Assembly (NCBI GenBank): GCA_005798555.1
Contig: SYJA01000087.1
Location: 5,157-69,156, forward strand
DNA from: Actinomycetota bacterium
Lineage (GTDB): Bacteria > Actinomycetota > Actinomycetes > S36-B12
Reading direction: 5' to 3'
Length of the DNA stretch: 64,000 nt
Shown here: piece after piece, positions 15,673 through 61,219 of the stretch
Position numbering within the stretch: position 1 is the stretch's first letter
Layout of the letters: each line of letters begins with the position of its first letter
The notes under the pieces: model-generated
The model's input: only the letters and a program-made list of their open reading frames with translations
Told to the model about the DNA's origin: nothing
Databases searched by the model: none
Position numbers and translations under genes: made by a program

Positions 15673-15780
15673 AACTAAACATGCACGGGAGCTCCTGCCT
15701 AGTGGAGCTGAGAGGGCGACAGCACGGCGTCGCCGACCGTTCGAACCTGTCCGGGTAATGCCGGCGTAGGGAGGATCCCA

Positions 15781-16386
15781 ATGTCAATGTTCATGAACGT
15801 GGCCTTCAGTGCGTGGAATAATGAGGTAACGGTGCTTGAGTTGCTGGCCGTGATTACCGCATTTATCGGAATCGGTCTGGCCATCCGCGGGACGCGGTGG
15901 GCGTGGCCATTCTATTTCCTCTCCAGTGCCCTTTATGGCTGGCTGCTCTGGGAGTACGCCCTCTACGGCACCGCGGCCCTGCAATTGGTTTTTATTGCCG
16001 CTGCAATCTGGGGTTGGTTCGGGTGGGGGGCAAAATCCATCACCCCCACCACCGTCAGTAATCGCACCCGCCTGATCCTTGTGGCTGGCAGTCTCGTGGC
16101 CTGGCTCGCCTTGGTGCCCGTCCTCGCAGCACTCGGGGATCCGGCGCCTTGGCCCGACACTTTCGTCTTTGTCGGTGGTGTCGTCGCCCAGGTATTGATG
16201 GTCCGTGAGTACGCGGAGTCGTGGGTACTTTGGATTGTCGTAAATGTTGTGGGAGCCGCTCTTTACGCGACACAAAACCTCTGGTTCACCTCGTTGTTCT
16301 ACGGGGCGCTACTTGTGCTGGCGGTCATTGGCCTGCGCAGTTGGCTCGCCAAGCGGGCACCGCTCCCGGGTTCGACTCACCTATGA
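15781..16386 (+). CDS. pnuC: Nicotinamide riboside transporter PnuC
   Basis: 201 aa, multi-TM and Trp-rich (WAWPFYF, WGWFGW). Coupled to a NadR-type kinase gene. Confidence 0.8.
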   Translation: MSMFMNVAFSAWNNEVTVLELLAVITAFIGIGLAIRGTRWAWPFYFLSSALYGWLLWEYALYGTAALQLVFIAAAIWGWFGWGAKSITPTTVSNRTRLILVAGSLVAWLALVPVLAALGDPAPWPDTFVFVGGVVAQVLMVREYAESWVLWIVVNVVGAALYATQNLWFTSLFYGALLVLAVIGLRSWLAKRAPLPGSTHL

Positions 16387-52454: not shown

Positions 52455-52624
52455 GTTGACCCCACAACTGAATCCGCGTAATTGAATCCAGGGAAAGTCC
52501 GGTGCGATTCCGGCGCTGTCCCGCAACCGTGATCCCAGTCTTTGGGAGAGTCGGAGCACCTGGCAGTTACGAACGGCTCCACCCGTCGAGGTAACGGAAC
52601 GGAGCCCGGGTCTTTACCCGGTCT
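52455..52624 (+). promoter_or_regulatory. Cobalamin riboswitch (aptamer core about 52477-52571 plus platform hairpins)
   Basis: Matches conserved cobalamin-riboswitch elements: AGGGAAAGUCCGGUGCGAUUCCGGCGCUGUCCCGCAACCGUGA (B12-box region) and GAGUCGGAGCACCUGGC. An 8-bp P1 forms between CGUAAUUG (52477-52484) and CAGUUACG (52564-52571). Confidence 0.85.
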
Positions 52625-52656
52625 CCCTTCATGCAGCAATGCTGAAGGGGTTTTTT
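52625..52656 (+). terminator. Intrinsic terminator forming the riboswitch expression platform
   Basis: Stem CCCTTCA(T)GCA, loop GCAA, stem TGC-TGAAGGG, followed by a run of six T (52651-52656). Lies immediately upstream of the first gene of the operon. Confidence 0.8.
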
Positions 52657-52705
52657 GTGGCCGAATAGGACGTGGGCACCAGGACAAACCGACTCAACCA
52701 AGAAT

Positions 52706-53743
52706 ATGGTGACCATGTCCAAACGATTTTCCGCACTTGTGGCGCTGGCCACAACGATTCTCGCCCTCGGCGCCGTCGCGCAGCCCGCATCTGCCAACCC
52801 GGCGGCCAATTCGGGCCTCTATGGCCGCGGGGATGCCACTTATGACGGCGTCTTTCGCCAGTCCCTGGGGATCTTGGGCCTGGTCGCAAATGACGTCAAG
52901 CCAGGCAAGGCAGCTATCACCTGGCTCCTTAAGCAGCAGTGCGCTGATGGCAGTTTCCAGGCGTACCGCCCCGATCCGAGCAAGGCTTGTGGTGTCTCCG
53001 ATCCGGTCAACTACACCGGCCCCGACACCAACTCCACCGCGCTGGCCCTAAGCGCTCTCCTGGCAGTGGATCAGGCCGCAAGTGCCGATGCGGCCGCGAC
53101 CTGGTTGGCGAAGCACCAAGACACTGATGGGGGTTGGCCTTGGTTCCTCGGTGGTGCCACCGACCCCGCATCCACCGGCTTGGTGCTGTCCGCATTGATG
53201 GGCGAGGCACCAAGTCGGCAGGTGCCCGTTTACCGAAAAGCCGCCCGCTACCTGAACCGCTTGGCCGTAGGTTGCGCGAGCGGTGGCGGACTTTCCTATG
53301 AGAGGGGCGCCGCCGCAGATCCCCTCGCCACCGCACAGGGCTTCTTGGGACTTGTTGCGACCTTGCCGGTCAGCGGATCGAGTTCCATCAAGCTAGCCGC
53401 AAATCCAACTTGCGGCAGGTCGGCAACGGGCGCAGCCGGCAGTTACCTGGCCACGAAGATCACGGGCGCTGGCGCACTACCCAGCGCATTTGGGTCAGAC
53501 CCTGATTACACGTCAACAAGTTTTGCTGTCCTTGGTTTCGTGGCGAACTCCAATGGCCGGCAAGCGGTAACCAAAGGCACCGCCACCTTGGTTGCAAATG
53601 CGAGTGCCTACGCGATGCCGGCGGGAGCAGCTAACCCTGGTGCTTTGGGTTTGCTGCTGCTGGTGAGCGAGGCGACGAATATGAAGCCAACCAATTTCGG
53701 TGGCATCAATTTGATCACTACGTTGCAGCAGAACCAGCAGTAA
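52706..53743 (+). CDS. Exported prenyltransferase/squalene-oxidase-repeat (alpha/alpha-toroid) protein
   Basis: Start re-chosen (ATG 52706 or 52715). Signal peptide MSKRFSALVALATTILALGAVAQPASA. Repeats WLLKQQCADGSF and WLAKHQDTDGGWPW. First gene behind the B12 riboswitch. Confidence 0.7.
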   Translation: MVTMSKRFSALVALATTILALGAVAQPASANPAANSGLYGRGDATYDGVFRQSLGILGLVANDVKPGKAAITWLLKQQCADGSFQAYRPDPSKACGVSDPVNYTGPDTNSTALALSALLAVDQAASADAAATWLAKHQDTDGGWPWFLGGATDPASTGLVLSALMGEAPSRQVPVYRKAARYLNRLAVGCASGGGLSYERGAAADPLATAQGFLGLVATLPVSGSSSIKLAANPTCGRSATGAAGSYLATKITGAGALPSAFGSDPDYTSTSFAVLGFVANSNGRQAVTKGTATLVANASAYAMPAGAANPGALGLLLLVSEATNMKPTNFGGINLITTLQQNQQ

Positions 53744-54447
53744 TGCCACGTGTCGCCCGGGCCAGCTGCATCAGCGTCGCAATTTGTCTTGCGGCGCTGT
53801 TGTTCAGCCCGGTGGCCCGGGCCGAGACCGGATACCGCTATTGGACGTTTTGGACAGTGCGCAATGGCCAATGGATTTTCTCCCAGGTTGGTCCGGCGGG
53901 TACCGCACCGGTCGACGGCGATGTGCAGGCTTGGCGGTTCGCGGTCACTGCAAATGCAAGTGGCAGCACCAGCGAACCGCGCACCGACCCGTCCCGGGCT
54001 TTCGAACTGATTTGCGGTTCCGTTCAGCAACCCGATGGCCAGATTCGAGTTGCCATGGTCATTGATCCGGGTGTTGCCGATACCGCACCTGCCGGACAAT
54101 CGCCACCACCAGCGCGTGGCGCGTGCGCGGTCATTGACGAATCAAAGTCCGGTGCCGATGCCTTGATGGCAGTGGCGACACCGCGCGTGCAGTCGGGATT
54201 GGTCTGCGGGATCGACTCGTACCCAACCGGTGAATGCGCAATTGCCATCGATACCACCGCAACTTCGATTGGCGCAGCTGAGGTGACCGATGTTTTGGCG
54301 GCGCCGTCAACTGCGGTGAGCGAGAGTGCCAGCGCTGCGGTTCCGGCAGCCGCCGATGGCAGCCCGGTGCCGCTCATCGCAGTCGGGGTGGTCATCGCAC
54401 TTGGCTTGGTCGGCGCTTGGGAATTACAGCGCAGGCGGTCGTCATGA
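53743..54447 (+). CDS. Exported, C-terminally membrane-anchored protein of unknown function (SCO2322-like as I recall the family name)
   Basis: 234 aa with TAATG coupling. Signal peptide ...LLFSPVARA, four Cys, an Ala/Ser-rich linker, and a TM anchor PLIAVGVVIALGLVGAW followed by RRRSS. Confidence 0.55.
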   Translation: MPRVARASCISVAICLAALLFSPVARAETGYRYWTFWTVRNGQWIFSQVGPAGTAPVDGDVQAWRFAVTANASGSTSEPRTDPSRAFELICGSVQQPDGQIRVAMVIDPGVADTAPAGQSPPPARGACAVIDESKSGADALMAVATPRVQSGLVCGIDSYPTGECAIAIDTTATSIGAAEVTDVLAAPSTAVSESASAAVPAAADGSPVPLIAVGVVIALGLVGAWELQRRRSS

Positions 54448-55565
54448 CTGGGTCACTCTTCACCCTCCCACGGTGGTTGCACCCGGCAGCCTGGTGGGTT
54501 TGGGCCCTAGGACTGGCTGCAGCGGCAAGTCGCACCACCAATCCGTTATTACTCTCCTTGATCATTGCCGTGGCAGCACTCGTGGTCTTTGCTCGAAAGC
54601 CGGATGCACCGTGGGGGCGATCCTTCATCTTCTTCCTGCGGCTAGGGGTGGCGGTTATCGTCATTCGGGTGGGCGTCCAACTGATTTTCGGTGCGGCGTT
54701 CGGCACCACGGTGCTACTTCAGCTGCCCGGCGTGGCCTTGCCCTCATGGTTAGCAGGGGTTCGACTTGGTGGTGACATCACCTTTGAGAGCGTGCTTTTG
54801 GCTTTCTATGACGGCTTGCGGCTGGCGACTATCTTGATCTGCGTCGGGGCCGCAAACTCCCTCGCCTCACCAAGTAGGTTGCTGAAGTCCGTGCCTGCAG
54901 CGCTCTACGAGTTCGGAGTCAGCGTGGTAGTCGCCATGACGTTTACACCTCAACTCGTTGCCGACGTCGATCGGGTGCGCACCGCCCGCCGCTTACGTGG
55001 TCGCCCAACAAGAGGTGTCCGGGCAATTGCCGGCGCAGCGATGCCGGTTTTCGAGGGGGCACTTGAAAAATCCGTGACACTCGCGGCGGCCATGGACTCC
55101 CGCGGCTACGGCCGCCGCGGCGCAATTAGTGCCGCCCAGCGCCGCCTGAACTCAGTGCTATTGCTAACCGGGCTGGTCGCCGCCTGCATCGGCACTTACG
55201 CTCTCATCGCCGCCGGGTCCCCGGCGGCGCTCGGGCTGCCCATGCTGGTTGTTGGTGTGAGTGTCTGCATCACTTCGATCACGTGGTCAGCGCGCACTGC
55301 CGTGCGCACCCGCTACCGGCCAGACCCATGGGCGCTCCCGGAGAATTTGGTGGCCGGCGCCGGCGTGCTGGTGGCCTTGAGCTTTCTCGCCGCCAATTGG
55401 GTGGCCATGCCGGGCTTGGCTACCCCTAGTAACCCACCGACCTGGCCGGCGCTGCCGCTCCTGCCACTCCTCGGTTTGCTAATTGCTGCCACTCCGGCAC
55501 TCACGGCACCCACGCTGCCCCGCACCATCGTTGGCGAGTTGCCAAGGATCGGGGTCCCCTCATGA
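54444..55565 (+). CDS. ecfT: ECF transporter transmembrane (T) component with an extended C-terminus
   Basis: Start at ATG 54444 (ATGA overlap). CbiQ/EcfT coupling motifs (VDRVRTARRLRG; LAAAMDSRGYG), followed by roughly 100 extra residues with further TM helices. Confidence 0.75.
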   Translation: MTGSLFTLPRWLHPAAWWVWALGLAAAASRTTNPLLLSLIIAVAALVVFARKPDAPWGRSFIFFLRLGVAVIVIRVGVQLIFGAAFGTTVLLQLPGVALPSWLAGVRLGGDITFESVLLAFYDGLRLATILICVGAANSLASPSRLLKSVPAALYEFGVSVVVAMTFTPQLVADVDRVRTARRLRGRPTRGVRAIAGAAMPVFEGALEKSVTLAAAMDSRGYGRRGAISAAQRRLNSVLLLTGLVAACIGTYALIAAGSPAALGLPMLVVGVSVCITSITWSARTAVRTRYRPDPWALPENLVAGAGVLVALSFLAANWVAMPGLATPSNPPTWPALPLLPLLGLLIAATPALTAPTLPRTIVGELPRIGVPS

Positions 55566-57184
55566 TCAACTTCGAGTGCGTTTCGATTACCTACCCGGGC
55601 GCCACCGAGCCGGTACTCACCGAGGTGAACCTGCAGATCCCCGAGGGTGAGCTCGTGTTGGTCGTAGGCCGCACCGGCAGTGGCAAGACCACCTTGCTCC
55701 GGGCCATCAACGGCTTGGTCCCGCACTTCACCGGTGGCACGCTCACCGGCCGAATCCTCGTCGACGGACGCGACACCGCCACCAACCCACCGCGCGAACT
55801 AGCCGATCTGGTGGGCGTGGTGCCGCAGGATCCGATGAGCGGATTTGTCGCCGACACGGTAGAGGAAGAACTCGCATATGGCATGGAGTGCCTTGGCCTG
55901 GCACCCGATGTCATGCGTCGGCGAGTTGAAGAAACCCTCGATCTACTTGGCTTAGTGGATCTGCGCAACCGGCCACTGCTGTCACTTTCGGCCGGCCAAC
56001 GGCAACGGGTAGCAATCGGCTCGGTGCTGGCTTCACACCCGACAGTGCTCGTACTTGATGAACCCACCTCGGCCCTTGACCCCGGTGCCGCCGAGGACGT
56101 ACTCGCCGCACTGCAGCGCTTGGTGCACGATCTCAACGTCACGGTTGTGATGGCGGAACACCGATTGGAGCGAGTGGTGCAGTACGCCGATCGCATCGTG
56201 ATCGTGCCCGGCGATGGTGAACCAATAATCAGTGGCACCCCGAGCGAAATGATGGGCAATTCACCAATCGCCCCACCTGTTGTTGAACTCGGCAGACTCG
56301 CTGGTTGGCAGCCGCTCCCGTTGACCGTGCGTGACGCACGACGCGCCGCTGGCCCCCTGCGTGAGCTCCTGACCGGGCACGCGGCGCCACTTCGAATCAT
56401 CAAAGGTGCGCGCGACGCGACACCACTGATCGTAACTGACAAGTTGACCGTGCGTTACGGAGCTGTTGTCGCCCTGAAAAATGTGAGCACCACAATCACC
56501 CGAGGTGAAATCGTCGCACTAATGGGCCGAAATGGCGCCGGAAAATCTACGCTGCTGAGCACAATGGTGGGCCTAAGGCTGGCGAGTGCGGGGGTAGTTC
56601 GAACGAACGGTAAGGATCCCCGCGAGATTAAAGGTCCCGAACTCGTGCACAGTGTTGGCTTGGTGCCACAAGACCCCGGCGATCTACTCGAAGCCTCGAC
56701 CGTCGCCGGCGAGTGCCGATCATCAGACCATGACGCCAATGCTGAACTTGGAACCACCCGCGCGCTCTTGGCACTTCTCGCACCAGAAGTCATGGACGGC
56801 ACGCACCCGCGGGATTTATCCGAGGGCCAAAGGCTGCTCCTGGCGCTGGCTATCGTGCTCGCCGCCCGACCGCCACTGCTGCTACTTGATGAGCCAACGC
56901 GTGGCCTCGACTATCCCACCAAGGCAAGACTGGTAAAAATCCTTCGTGAGTTGGCAGCTACCGGGCACGGGGTCGTGCTGGCAACACATGATGTGGAACT
57001 GGCCGCGGAAGTAGCAACGCGGGTGATCGTGCTCGCCGAGGGCGAGGTCGTTGCCGATGGGCCGACCCACGAAGTGGTACTGGCCTCCCCCATGTTCGCA
57101 CCGCAGGTCGCGAAGATCTTGGCCCCCGAGGACTGGCTAACGGTCTCCGAGGTTCGCGCTGCGATGATTGAGCAGGTCGGCTAG
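55562..57184 (+). CDS. ECF transporter fused tandem ATPase (EcfA-EcfA')
   Basis: 540 aa with two ABC cassettes: Walker A GRTGSGKTT and GRNGAGKST, signatures LSAGQRQR and LSEGQRL. Confidence 0.9.
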   Translation: MINFECVSITYPGATEPVLTEVNLQIPEGELVLVVGRTGSGKTTLLRAINGLVPHFTGGTLTGRILVDGRDTATNPPRELADLVGVVPQDPMSGFVADTVEEELAYGMECLGLAPDVMRRRVEETLDLLGLVDLRNRPLLSLSAGQRQRVAIGSVLASHPTVLVLDEPTSALDPGAAEDVLAALQRLVHDLNVTVVMAEHRLERVVQYADRIVIVPGDGEPIISGTPSEMMGNSPIAPPVVELGRLAGWQPLPLTVRDARRAAGPLRELLTGHAAPLRIIKGARDATPLIVTDKLTVRYGAVVALKNVSTTITRGEIVALMGRNGAGKSTLLSTMVGLRLASAGVVRTNGKDPREIKGPELVHSVGLVPQDPGDLLEASTVAGECRSSDHDANAELGTTRALLALLAPEVMDGTHPRDLSEGQRLLLALAIVLAARPPLLLLDEPTRGLDYPTKARLVKILRELAATGHGVVLATHDVELAAEVATRVIVLAEGEVVADGPTHEVVLASPMFAPQVAKILAPEDWLTVSEVRAAMIEQVG

Positions 57185-57987
57185 TGACAAACTCCTTGGC
57201 CCTACGGCTTGGACCGCGATCCATCATCACCATCGCGGCCACCTCACTTGTCGGGATGGTTGCCTTCGGCTGGCCACTTATCGCTGCCCCGACTTCGAGT
57301 GTCGTCGCGCATGCCACCGATGCGCCCTGGTTGTTCGCCATCGTCATTCCACTACTGCTCGCCGTAGTTGTTTCGTCCTTCACCGACGGCGGCATGGACG
57401 CCAAGGCAATTGCCCTGCTCGGAGTCCTAGCAGCTGTCGTAGCGGTGCTGCGACCCCTAGGAGGTGGTACTGCCGGGCTGGAGCCGATCTGGGTCATTTT
57501 GGTGCTCGGTGGTCGTGCCCTTGGGCCCGGTTTTGGTTTTGCCCTTGGGGCGGTAGCACTTTTTTCATCGGCCCTGCTAACCGGTGGGGTGGGGCCGTGG
57601 CTGCCATTTCAAATGCTCGGGGCCGCATGGGTCGGCCTTGGCGCTGGCCTGCTGCCCAGGGCTACCGGCCGACCTGAACTCCTGCTCCTCGCCGCCTACG
57701 GTGCGCTCGCAAGCTTCGCCTACGGCCTGCTGATGAATCTTTGGTTCTGGCCCTTTGTCGCCAACCTGCCGGCCGCGCTCGCCTACGCACCCGGCGCACC
57801 AATTGTGGAGAACTTGGTGTCCTGGGTCCGATTTACTCTTGTGACGTCCCTTGGGTACGACATTCCACGCGCGGTGCTAACCGTCACGTTGACCCTCATC
57901 GCCGGCGCGCCTATCTTGAATGCACTGCGACGGGTTTCGCGCCGCGCGGCTTTTGACCCGCAGTCGATCTTCGTGCCGGTGCCATGA
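57184..57987 (+). CDS. ECF transporter substrate-capture (S) component, candidate cobamide-specific
   Basis: 267 aa polytopic membrane protein, GTG start overlapping the ATPase stop (TAGTG). S role inferred from its position in the ECF module. Confidence 0.6.
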   Translation: MTNSLALRLGPRSIITIAATSLVGMVAFGWPLIAAPTSSVVAHATDAPWLFAIVIPLLLAVVVSSFTDGGMDAKAIALLGVLAAVVAVLRPLGGGTAGLEPIWVILVLGGRALGPGFGFALGAVALFSSALLTGGVGPWLPFQMLGAAWVGLGAGLLPRATGRPELLLLAAYGALASFAYGLLMNLWFWPFVANLPAALAYAPGAPIVENLVSWVRFTLVTSLGYDIPRAVLTVTLTLIAGAPILNALRRVSRRAAFDPQSIFVPVP

Positions 57988-59390
57988 TCGTTCAACTGAT
58001 GGGCACCGGATCCGCGGACGGTTGGCCCAACCCATTTTGTCGCTGCCCATCGTGCACGAGCGAACGGGCCGCGGGTAGCACCCGATGCCCAACCGCAGCG
58101 CTGGTGGATGGCTGCCTCTTGCTGGACGCCGGGCCGACGGTAGCCGCGGCTGCCGGTCGATTCGGAACCTCGTTCGCCGATCTTGAGCATATTTTGATCA
58201 CCCACGGCCATCCGGACCACCTGGCCCCGGACTTTCTGCTCTGGCGCAGTTGGGTTGACCCCGGCTTCACGTTACATATCTGGGCGCCACCGGTTGCCCT
58301 CGAACGCTGCCGCGACTGGATCGGGCCAAATGATGCGGTGCAACTGCACCAGATCACCGCTGGCGAGGAATTGAACTTGGTGACACGAACCGGGGACTAT
58401 GCGGTGCGCACCCTGCCCGCAGCACATGCAACCGGTAATGGCGACGTGCTGGCCGAGGAAGCCGTGCTGTTCGACCTCACCGCCCCCGATGCACGCCGTC
58501 TCTTCTATGCAACTGATACCGGGCCATTCAGTGCGGCTTTGCTAGATCAGGTTCGTGGACGGTGCTTTGACCTGGTGCTACTTGATGAGACTTTTGGCAC
58601 CAAATTTGACCATGGGCACGGACACCTTGATCTAGAAACCTTTCCGCAGGCCGTGCAGGACCTGCGCGACATAAACGCAACCACCGAGCACACCGATGTT
58701 GTTGCGATACACCTGAGCCACCACAATCCGCCCACCGAGCAACTGCGGGCTTCGCTCTTGGGCTGTGGCGCCCGCGTTGTCGACGATGGCACCGCCATCG
58801 AGGTGGGCCTGCGGATAGCCGGTAACAGCCACCACTTCATCTTGGGTGGCGCCCGATCCGGTAAATCCCACTTCGCCGAAACCATCGCAGCCAGGTCTGG
58901 GCATGTCACCTATCTGGCGACCGGCTACCCGGCAGGTGAAGACCCAAACTGGAATGCCCGGATTGCCGCGCACCGCCAGCGCCGCCCGGGGCATTGGCGA
59001 ACCGAAGAGACCATTGACCTGGCCACGGCGATCGAAAAAGCAGCAGCCGGCAGCTGCCTGCTGATCGATTGCCTGGCCCTTTGGCTAACTAGGACATTGG
59101 ACGAGATCAACGGCTGGGCGACCGACCCGCAGGCTAGTGCGGTGGCCCAAAAGGAAATACATCGTCGAACCGACCAACTTGTTTCGGCCCTGCAAAATAC
59201 GCGGGCTGCAGTGATCCTCGTTTCGAATGAGGTGGGCCAAGGGGTGGTGCCGGAAACAAGCAGCGGACGCCTCTTTCGCGACCTACTCGGGGTTGTCAAT
59301 GCCCGGGTGGCCCAAACTTGCCATGAGGTCACTTTCATGATCGCCGGCAGATCTGTCCCACTACATGATTTGACCACGGTGAGAGGCTGA
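57984..59390 (+). CDS. cobU: Fusion of an MBL-fold (PhnP-like) metallo-hydrolase domain to adenosylcobinamide kinase/adenosylcobinamide-phosphate guanylyltransferase
   Basis: 468 aa. The N-terminal ~270 aa carry CRCPSC and ITHGHPDH (HxHxDH). The C-terminal ~185 aa carry the CobU P-loop ILGGARSGKS and a CobU-like body. Confidence 0.8.
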   Translation: MIVQLMGTGSADGWPNPFCRCPSCTSERAAGSTRCPTAALVDGCLLLDAGPTVAAAAGRFGTSFADLEHILITHGHPDHLAPDFLLWRSWVDPGFTLHIWAPPVALERCRDWIGPNDAVQLHQITAGEELNLVTRTGDYAVRTLPAAHATGNGDVLAEEAVLFDLTAPDARRLFYATDTGPFSAALLDQVRGRCFDLVLLDETFGTKFDHGHGHLDLETFPQAVQDLRDINATTEHTDVVAIHLSHHNPPTEQLRASLLGCGARVVDDGTAIEVGLRIAGNSHHFILGGARSGKSHFAETIAARSGHVTYLATGYPAGEDPNWNARIAAHRQRRPGHWRTEETIDLATAIEKAAAGSCLLIDCLALWLTRTLDEINGWATDPQASAVAQKEIHRRTDQLVSALQNTRAAVILVSNEVGQGVVPETSSGRLFRDLLGVVNARVAQTCHEVTFMIAGRSVPLHDLTTVRG

Positions 59391-59394
59391 CCGC

Positions 59395-60471
59395 ATGGCT
59401 AACCCGGACCCTTATCGAGTTGAAGTCGCCCTACCTGATGCGCCCGCCAGTTCGGAAGCAGCTGCACGGCAATTAACACTTACGAAACCCGCCGGCGCGC
59501 TCGGGCGCTTGGAAGAAATCAGCAGCTGGGCCGCCGGGGTTCAAGGTCGTTGCCCACCGATCCCGTTCACCCGACCCAGTGTTGTCGTCTTCGTCGGCGA
59601 CCACGGGGTCGCGCGTGCGGTCGGCACCTCCGCCTTCCCGACCGAGGTCACCGCCCAGATGGTCCTGAATTTCTTGGCCGGCGGCGCCGCCGTTAATGTC
59701 TTGGCACGAAAGGTTGGCGCGCAGGTCCGCGTGATCGATGTCAGCGTTGACTGCGACCGCGCCTATCTAGACAAAATCGCTCCCGAGGTCGCACAACATC
59801 GGGTCAGGCGCGGTAGCGGTGCGATCGACCGCGAGGATGCGCTGACCCAAGCCGAGGGTGAAGCAGCATTTGCACTCGGTCAGCGCATCGCCGATGAGGA
59901 AATCGACTCCGGGGCGGATCTGTTGATCGCAGGTGACATGGGGATAGGCAACACCACCCCGGCGGCGACGTTGATCGGACTACTCACCTCGAATGATGCC
60001 GCCACCGTCACCGGCAGGGGCACCGGCATTGATGACGCCACCTGGATGCGGAAGTGTGCAGCAGTCCGCGATGCGATGCGACGCGGGCGACCCTTCATTG
60101 GTGAACCAAGGAAGTTGCTGCAAGTGGTGGCGGGCGCCGATATCGCAGCGATGTCAGGCTTCCTACTGCAAGCGGCAATTCGCCGCACGCCGGTGCTTCT
60201 TGACGGCACGATCACCACCGCGGCGGCCCTGGCCGCTGACCGAATTGACTACCGGGCCAAGAACTGGTGGCTGGCTGGCCACCTATCAGCTGAACCAGCA
60301 CATGCCCTTGCCCTAAATCGCCTGAACATGACACCGTTACTCAGTTATCAAATGCGCCTCGGCGAAGGCACCGGCGCCCTGCTGGCCCTGCCGATTTTAC
60401 AGTCGGCAATTGCGTTATTAAATGAGATGGCGACCTTCGCTGAGGCTGGGGTGTCAGACCGCGATGCCTGA
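59395..60471 (+). CDS. cobT: Nicotinate-nucleotide--dimethylbenzimidazole phosphoribosyltransferase
   Basis: 358 aa CobT family (GDMGIGNTT; ...LGEGTGA). Confidence 0.9.
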   Translation: MANPDPYRVEVALPDAPASSEAAARQLTLTKPAGALGRLEEISSWAAGVQGRCPPIPFTRPSVVVFVGDHGVARAVGTSAFPTEVTAQMVLNFLAGGAAVNVLARKVGAQVRVIDVSVDCDRAYLDKIAPEVAQHRVRRGSGAIDREDALTQAEGEAAFALGQRIADEEIDSGADLLIAGDMGIGNTTPAATLIGLLTSNDAATVTGRGTGIDDATWMRKCAAVRDAMRRGRPFIGEPRKLLQVVAGADIAAMSGFLLQAAIRRTPVLLDGTITTAAALAADRIDYRAKNWWLAGHLSAEPAHALALNRLNMTPLLSYQMRLGEGTGALLALPILQSAIALLNEMATFAEAGVSDRDA

Positions 60472-61219
60472 CTGGCTTCGACTTTCCGTTGGCACCTTCA
60501 CCCGGCTGCCGGTGCCAGCCCCACGCAGGGTAGACCAAGCCACCGCCGGGTGGGCTATGACGTTCGCACCGGTCATCGCATTCGTGCTGGCTCTAATCTG
60601 CGCCCTGCCCGTGCTTCTAGCAGGCAACAACCTGGCTAGAGCACTGCTCCTGTCGGCGCTTAGCGTTGGACTCCTCACCTGGTGCACGCGTGCACTCCAT
60701 CTCGATGGGCTCGCCGATACCGCCGACGCACTGGGCAGTGGTAAACCGGCCGCCGAGGCCCTGGTGATCGCCCGTAAATCCGATATCGGACCCTTCGGGG
60801 TGCTGGCCATTGCCTTCACTTTGGCGTTGCAGGTATTTGCACTCAGCGCTGCGGCAACTACCTCGTTGGGTGCGGGCCGTGGCTACCTGATGCTGATCAT
60901 CGCCGTAGTCACCGGACGCATTGCCCTGCTTTGGGCCTGCACCAAGCCGGTGCCGGCGGCACGACCCGATGGGCTCGGGGCCGTTGTTGCAGGAACCGTG
61001 CCATGGTTCGTGACTGTTGGCTGGACGATCGCGCTGCTGCTAGCCGCCTATTTCGCCCTCAATCTCGTTGGCTTGGGCATGGTCATCGCCGGAATCATCA
61101 TTGGGGTGATTGTCATTGCAATTGCAAGTCGCAGGCTCGGTGGGGTCACCGGTGATGTGCTTGGGGGGGTGATCGAGACCAGCACCACTGCCGCCCTCGT
61201 GATCGGCGCCCTGCTTTAA
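60464..61219 (+). CDS. cobS: Adenosylcobinamide-GDP ribazoletransferase (cobalamin synthase)
   Basis: Start re-chosen at ATG 60464 (8-nt overlap with the cobT stop). Polytopic, with HLDGLADTADAL and GGVTGDVLG motifs. Confidence 0.85.
   Translation: MPDWLRLSVGTFTRLPVPAPRRVDQATAGWAMTFAPVIAFVLALICALPVLLAGNNLARALLLSALSVGLLTWCTRALHLDGLADTADALGSGKPAAEALVIARKSDIGPFGVLAIAFTLALQVFALSAAATTSLGAGRGYLMLIIAVVTGRIALLWACTKPVPAARPDGLGAVVAGTVPWFVTVGWTIALLLAAYFALNLVGLGMVIAGIIIGVIVIAIASRRLGGVTGDVLGGVIETSTTAALVIGALL

Follow-up and report, generated by a model that had tools for sequence, protein, structure and literature searches.

The window analysed here is a stretch of 64,000 nucleotides from a lake bacterium of the Actinomycetota, lineage S36-B12 (contig SYJA01000087.1, positions 5,157 to 69,156), whose genome sequence is 2.09 Mb and 86% complete. 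At positions 57984-59390 of the forward strand, a single open reading frame (ORF) encodes a 468 amino acid (aa) protein in which a metallo-beta-lactamase (MBL) fold domain is fused to the cobalamin enzyme CobU. The gene is one of eight co-directional genes behind a cobalamin riboswitch, encoding an SCO2321-family protein, an SCO2322-family protein, the T component and the duplicated ATPase of an energy-coupling factor (ECF) transporter, a 267 aa membrane protein, the fusion, CobT and CobS. The ATG start codon of the fusion overlaps the stop codon of the membrane-protein gene (ATGA).

The fused protein and its PhnP-like domain

Pfam recognises two domains in the protein, Lactamase_B_2 over residues 45-228 (E 1.8e-19) and CobU over residues 285-459 (E 1.1e-52). 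The CobU domain is above the curated cut-offs of both NCBIfam (179 bits against 161, PRK05800/NF004469) and Pfam (178 bits against 27, PF02283), and it was the sole CobU match on this genome in a class-wide profile search. The N-terminal part carries the Cys cluster CRCPSC (residues 19-24, nucleotides 58038-58055) and the sequence ITHGHPDH (residues 72-79, with H74xH76xD78H79 at nucleotides 58203-58220). The P-loop GGARSGKS of the CobU domain (residues 288-295, nucleotides 58845-58868) is invariant in the aligned homologues. H330, within the invariant motif HRxRRP, is also conserved in them and is the putative counterpart of the guanylylated catalytic His of Salmonella CobU. The AlphaFold model of the full-length fusion has a predicted local distance difference test score (pLDDT) of 86.7 and a predicted TM-score (pTM) of 0.80. 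The domains and motifs agree with an earlier, sequence-only reading of the stretch, which had described a PhnP-like MBL domain joined to a standard CobU and had named the three motifs in these parts of the protein.

That reading had also considered that two separate genes might have been joined by a sequencing error. This is ruled out and the fusion is genuine: the junction is uninterrupted in one frame, with no stop codon, here and in 80 of 80 related loci, and at least 529 actinomycete species have the same single-frame fusion in their genomes (from a scan of one genome per species), isolates and closed chromosomes among them. The chance that assembly or sequencing produced an architecture that recurs in so many protein clusters is practically nil. 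Carriers include the Nanopelagicales, other freshwater Actinomycetes known from metagenome-assembled genomes, Nocardioides, the Rhodococcus erythropolis group and Longivirga. A word-indexed search matched more than 1,800 protein clusters, of which the best 120 all have both Pfam domains, share 48-94% identity and are 459-497 aa long, except for one 337 aa fragment. Databases name these 120 only as bifunctional adenosylcobinamide kinase/guanylyltransferase, ignoring the N-terminal hydrolase domain of about 280 residues. No description of this CobU fusion, or of an MBL-type remodelling enzyme, was found in the literature on CobU, cobamide remodelling and salvage by acI/Nanopelagicales. The fusion is known only as CobU in the databases, and its N-terminal domain is uncharacterised.

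Among 40 homologous N-terminal domains of about 50% identity, fourteen residues are invariant: C19, C21, C24, H74, H76, D78, H79, H148, D178, H210, H214, H243, H246 and H247. The full signature is present in 81 loci. The nearest sequence in the PDB by profile search is that of E. coli PhnP (3g1p, E 4.7e-14), and the binuclear metal-ligand set of the PhnP family is kept throughout (H74, H76, D78, H79, H148, D178 and H243). H214, in a GHLD motif, aligns with the His of the PhnP motif RNHCD(L), the general-acid His of the active site. H243 and H246 align with the HISH motif of PhnP, and C19, C21 and C24 with its CECAAC. The Cys cluster and late His that form the structural zinc site of PhnP are also kept (C19, C21, C24 and H246).

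The AlphaFold 2 model of the domain has a pLDDT of 93.3. Its best fold matches are, in order, PqqB, the PhnP-family structure 6b9v (TM 0.80 by target) and PhnP (all three with Foldseek probability 1.0), followed by nucleotide-bound MBL proteins of Brucella, YhfI, ElaC, Apyc1 and RNase Z. Apart from PqqB, most of these near folds are phosphodiesterases, and the domain lies in the phosphodiesterase branch of the MBL superfamily. It is assigned to the binuclear-metal phosphodiesterases of the PhnP family, has intact catalytic residues and has been recruited to B12 metabolism. An exhaustive profile search with the domain returned 319 clusters at E <= 1e-30, many of them unfused and 264-290 aa long. 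One stand-alone form, P0224 (E 4e-42), ends an operon of the C-P lyase pathway that contains phnGHIJ and is therefore a PhnP by context. Its metal-site and acid residues are identical to those of the fusion, and it anchors the family assignment.

The domain shares with PhnP, the 5-phospho-alpha-D-ribosyl 1,2-cyclic phosphate phosphodiesterase of the C-P lyase pathway, the MBL fold, the metal ligands, the Cys cluster and the general-acid His. It differs from PhnP in being joined to CobU within a B12-riboswitch importer operon, and it scores far below the PhnP equivalog cut-off (35.6 bits against 272.25, TIGR03307). Neither a PhnJ match nor a second copy of the MBL domain was found in the 86% complete genome; on these two negatives the domain was rejected as the PhnP of the phosphonate pathway, and its gene lies in a B12 operon. 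The domain matches MBL families only. It does not have the His_Phos_1 fold with its RHG motif (CobC, TIGR03162) and, being of the MBL fold, it does not belong to the AP endonuclease 2 family of TIM-barrel proteins that includes CbiR. Two of the fourteen residues, H210 and H247, do not vary within the importer-linked clade but do so in PhnPs and in other forms. These are candidate substrate-specific residues and may mark a substrate distinct from that of PhnP, without identifying it. A B12-binding motif of the DxHxxG type around H210 was considered and rejected, as the spacing is wrong.

Importer operons and distribution of the fusion

The features of the operon are listed in Table 1. The 267 aa protein is putatively the substrate-capture (S) component of the importer, and its gene is directly 5' of the fusion in all loci of the ECF type with a contig long enough to show it. 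The true start of cobS may be slightly downstream of the position given.

Table 1. Features of the riboswitch-headed operon, in window positions
Feature	Position	Strand	Basis
AdoCbl-II (adenosylcobalamin) riboswitch aptamer, heads the operon	52479..52569	+	Rfam RF01689, 47.7 bits against gathering threshold 36.5
SCO2321-family exported/membrane protein	52655..53743	+	NCBIfam NF053823, E 3e-57; syntenic in most related loci
SCO2322-family protein	53743..54447	+	NCBIfam NF040672, 142.5 bits against 85; syntenic
ECF transporter T component (CbiQ-like)	54417..55565	+	Pfam CbiQ, E 4.7e-07; 50-95% identity in related loci
Duplicated ECF-type ABC ATPase (EcfA-EcfA')	55562..57184	+	NCBIfam ECF_ATPase_1 and ECF_ATPase_2, two ATPase stretches, E 1e-88
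267 aa polytopic membrane protein, hydrophobic throughout	57184..57987	+	no Pfam or NCBIfam match
Fusion, PhnP-family MBL-fold domain (residues 1-282)	57984..58829	+	Pfam Lactamase_B_2, invariant residues, AlphaFold 2 model
Fusion, CobU domain (adenosylcobinamide kinase / adenosylcobinamide-phosphate guanylyltransferase; residues 283-468)	58830..59390	+	Pfam CobU, NCBIfam NF004469
CobT (nicotinate-nucleotide--dimethylbenzimidazole phosphoribosyltransferase)	59395..60471	+	NCBIfam TIGR03160, 404 bits against 319
CobS (cobamide synthase)	60422..61219	+	NCBIfam cobS models, E 2.5e-42; TIGR00317 99.4 bits, under cut-off 110; syntenic

The order from the riboswitch to the fusion is kept in nearly all of the Nanopelagicales and Nocardioides loci among the 80 related loci. 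Operons of the Nocardioides type lack cobT, which is found elsewhere in those genomes. Loci of the Rhodococcus group have a BtuFCD-like operon (Peripla_BP_2, FecCD, ABC_tran) that ends with the fusion. Upstream, L083 has a cobalamin riboswitch of 47.6 bits and L076 a sub-threshold match of 24.5 bits; L076, L078 and L093 gave no match at the gathering threshold. Two unrelated types of importer, ECF and BtuFCD-like, are therefore each followed by the same fusion.

Other variations were seen around cobT and cobS. Just 3' of cobS, several fusion operons have a DBI_PRT-like ORF of half size (about 260 aa) that matches positions 132-317 only of the CobT family (G003:C1:943528-944079, with counterparts at the corresponding positions of G008, G009, G011, G013, G014 and G017). 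In two genomes cobT is split into two adjacent frames (G009:C1:595263-596292 and G012:C2:541923-542937), which may be a pseudogene or a frameshift error.

The distribution of the fusion relative to CbiB was investigated in an evenly drawn set of 161 Actinomycetes genomes, all of 90% completeness or more except that of the window, which were searched with the full-length profile and for CbiB (Table 2). One of the CbiB-positive genomes with the full form (G066) is unpublished; without it the counts for that form are 48, 17 and 31. Of the 41 genomes with CobU and without CbiB, 31 carry the intact fusion, and it is their sole CobU.

Table 2. Forms of CobU in 161 Actinomycetes genomes (descriptive counts)
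Form	Genomes	CbiB-positive	CbiB-negative
Complete MBL-CobU	49	18	31
Remnant MBL fused to CobU	23	22	1
Plain CobU	42	33	9
No CobU	47	1	46

A second set of 35 fusion genomes gives a similar picture, with 28 that lack CbiB and have the fused CobU as their only CobU. Seven are CbiB-positive, and four of these, all Rhodococcus, have a stand-alone CobU beside cobT in addition to the importer-linked fusion. The fusion is a second CobU in 4 of the 5 CbiB-positive genomes of the Rhodococcus group.

The remnants are found at loci where the remnant-CobU gene is followed by cobS, mostly with cobT between them, and importer genes are never adjacent. An example is the 402 aa protein of L102:5892-7100, from a 9.2 Mb genome (G109), which has lost D78/H79, H148, D178, H210 and H214 and retains the Cys cluster and the flanking parts of the MBL domain. 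The decay of the catalytic core in 22 CbiB-positive genomes shows that de novo B12 assembly does not need the MBL domain there. Many large-genome, CbiB-positive actinomycetes have a CobU of about 400 aa (L102 and loci L103-L126) in which the N-terminal 225 residues are the decayed PhnP-like domain, still with its Cys cluster but without the metal site. Pfam detects only CobU in these proteins.

Possible roles of the fusion in corrinoid salvage

The organism of the window imports and salvages corrinoids. CbiZ, CbiB and a true BluB were not detected in its 86% complete genome, yet several B12-binding enzymes are present, so the organism depends on imported corrinoids. The genome has one cobT match. 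It also has three AP_endonuc_2 genes, none of them on the contig of the window, and this family is too broad for any of the three to be called a CbiR.

The reading favoured here, tentatively, is that the fusion could well be a two-enzyme protein that processes imported corrinoids, its N-terminal domain being a cobamide phosphodiesterase used in remodelling. The sequence-only reading had offered the trimming of imported corrinoids as its second choice, and it is this suggestion that the importer and riboswitch operons and the CbiB pattern favour. From the domain identity, the intact residues and their conservation, together with the importer linkage and the phyletic pattern, we infer a substrate, a bond cleaved and a channelling of product to CobU as follows. 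The N-terminal domain would cleave the nucleotide-loop phosphodiester of complete imported cobamides such as pseudocobalamin. This would free the unwanted lower-ligand riboside and leave cobinamide-phosphate or cobinamide, which the fused CobU would convert into adenosylcobinamide-GDP by its kinase and/or guanylyltransferase activity. A new lower ligand would then be put on by CobT and CobS of the same operon, and the last phosphate would be taken off by a separate His-phosphatase, described below. For two consecutive steps, a fusion with the enzyme that uses the product would be expected. The C-terminal 185 residues are those of a standard CobU/CobP, from which the protein differs in the additional hydrolase domain of 280 residues.

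A comparable reaction is known for CbiR of Akkermansia muciniphila, where cleavage of the phosphodiester yields cobinamide-phosphate, skips the rebuilding of the linker and allows CobU, CobT, CobS and CobC to complete the cofactor (PMC7733943). The cbiR gene is likewise found among cobU, cobT and cobS salvage genes in a host without CbiZ. CbiR is a TIM-barrel protein of the AP endonuclease 2 family, unrelated to the MBL domain and not fused to CobU, so the fusion domain, with its predicted activity, would be at most a functional analogue.

CbiZ and CbiR are the only known families of remodelling enzymes, besides a CobS-based route that has reportedly been described. A bolder proposal, slightly less probable than the favoured reading, is that the PhnP-like domain may be a third, structurally unrelated cobamide-remodelling family. 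Coupled to CobU, it would allow very abundant actinobacteria of fresh water and soil to remove the lower ligand of imported analogues, for example the pseudocobalamin of cyanobacteria, and to rebuild them, with H210 and H247 adapting the PhnP scaffold to its corrinoid substrate. Which B12 analogues a microbe can use depends on cobamide remodelling, and the Nanopelagicales dominate lake bacterioplankton. If the proposal is right, B12 ecology would gain a new enzyme family, and there would be an explanation of how B12-auxotrophic lake bacteria cope with pseudocobalamin. Predictions made from genome sequences would also shift, since many 'cobinamide salvagers' would become 'remodellers'. The series from intact domains in importer operons to eroded ones in CbiB genomes provides a comparative handle, and the cultured hosts Rhodococcus and Nocardioides make the reading testable.

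Several points weigh against remodelling. BluB is absent from 30 of 36 fusion genomes, so their hosts would have to obtain the lower base from outside in order to remodel to cobalamin. PhnP acts on a much smaller molecule than a cobamide. The sampled genomes are related and not independent, so the enrichment figures describe the distribution rather than test it and overstate the statistical support. In thirteen CbiB-positive genomes the core ligands of a full-length form are intact and no importer is adjacent, which indicates that the MBL domain is not strictly importer-bound; in these importer-free forms (L127, L131-L133, L135-L141) cobT and/or cobS is next where the contig allows. Two further forms (L130 and L134) are degenerate. 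Lastly, some unfused relatives have no visible link to B12, such as P0165, which is between ffh and an ABC pair.

The role that the sequence-only reading had put first was different: the MBL domain would be a phosphomonoesterase that takes the 5'-phosphate off alpha-ribazole-5'-phosphate or adenosylcobalamin-5'-phosphate, in place of a missing CobC or CobZ. It was correct that the operon holds cobU, cobT and cobS with no gene for either phosphatase, as neither a His_Phos_1 nor a PgpA-type gene is present in it. PgpA-like proteins (PF04608), the family of CobZ, have no match in the genome, and none of its 6 or 7 His_Phos_1 paralogues, all outside the operon, attains the TIGR03162 cut-off. The importer-free forms of the thirteen CbiB-positive genomes, directly before cobT and/or cobS, are also in a biosynthetic-like setting that would suit a phosphatase. 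However, TIGR03162 and PF00300 are unable to discriminate CobC, having paralogues everywhere, and a full-length RNase H-CobC query was used in their place. The query is one of the paralogues, a 401 aa RNase H + His_Phos_1 protein of the genome of the window with the architecture of Rv2228c/MSMEG_4305. A protein of this type is found in all 36 fusion genomes tested, that of the window included, matched over both domains in 35 of them, with the remaining match ending at the end of a contig. For the C-terminal domain of this type of protein, alpha-ribazole-5'-phosphatase activity has been measured, and the domain has a part in the B12 synthesis of M. smegmatis (PMC7466739; PMC12713380), in which a second, unidentified CobC activity is suspected (PMC7466739), a point in favour of a further phosphatase.

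Because the RNase H-CobC protein co-occurs with it, the fusion is not filling the gap of an absent CobC, and its role as a substitute is poorly supported. The sequence-only reading had stated that its proposal would fail if a canonical cobC or cobZ existed elsewhere and the MBL domain were inactive on these substrates; a CobC-type protein does exist elsewhere in the genome, which is one half of that statement. CobC of the Rv2228c/MSMEG_4305 type and archaeal CobZ act in the same pathway of nucleotide-loop assembly and have no kinship of sequence or fold with the MBL domain. The relatives PhnP, RNase Z and Apyc1 are diesterases, and no phosphomonoesterase is known in the PhnP family. With the catalytic core also decayed in the 22 CbiB-positive genomes, and the Rhodococcus fusion lying in an importer operon apart from cobT and the stand-alone cobU, a phosphatase role is considered quite improbable.

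Somewhat unlikely, rather than improbable, is that the domain is an active PhnP-type hydrolase of another B12-related phosphodiester or diphosphate. Its substrate might be alpha-DAD, the activated lower ligand in dinucleotide form, which would give alpha-ribazole-5'-phosphate and AMP, but also a cyclic phosphate or a corrinoid conjugate brought in by import. Proofreading of miscoupled cobinamide-GDP or cobamide-phosphate is a further candidate. The structure 6b9v is titled 'new diphosphatase from the PhnP family', the close folds 3qh8 and 3md7 bind AMP or GMP, and H210 and H247 are invariant in the importer-linked clade alone, all of which would fit such a substrate. No account of the substrate of 6b9v was found in the literature on 6B9V or a 'PhnP family diphosphatase'. 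A bypass from alpha-DAD to alpha-ribazole-5'-phosphate is mentioned in a review (PMC12713380); however, no known need for steps of this kind in salvage has been described, and the fusion to CobU and placement with importers, in operons that are free of cobT in Rhodococcus and Nocardioides, favour a corrinoid over a lower-ligand substrate. It is very improbable indeed that the domain is non-catalytic, serving CobU as a scaffold, an oligomerisation domain or a corrinoid-binding module. Remnants without the metal site stay fused to CobU in 23 sampled genomes, which suggests some structural value of the N- and C-terminal pieces, but the invariance of all 14 metal-site, acid and other His and Cys residues across sequences of about 50% identity in 81 loci is a signature of selection on catalysis.

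Unfused relatives and other observations

Unfused forms that score higher than P0224 are found at B12 loci. P0183 is near cobS, and P0166 follows an SCO2322-family gene beside gcvT in a genome that has cobU, cobS and cobT elsewhere. The contigs of P0146, P0157 and P0202 are too short to show gene context. A reduced locus, L148:3061-6084, consists of a 436 aa SCO2321-like gene, an SCO2322-family gene and an unfused, catalytically intact MBL gene beside gcvT. ECF genes are absent from this locus, and cobU, cobS and cobT are on another contig of the genome.

At L143:7001-11511, the gene for P0165 (E 1e-81) comes directly after ffh, and two half-transporters (ABC_membrane+ABC_tran) start 5 nucleotides downstream of it. 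These may be an exporter-fold importer pair. No riboswitch was detected at this locus and its context is ambiguous.

In one genome of the Nocardioides type, BluB and a CobT-like domain share a single open frame of 616 aa (L100, G028:C1:1152733-1154358), which resembles the BluB/CobT2 fusion of Propionibacterium. Elsewhere in the window, and unrelated to the fusion, there is a thiamine pyrophosphate (TPP) riboswitch at positions 15675-15789 of the forward strand (RF00059, 67.7 bits).

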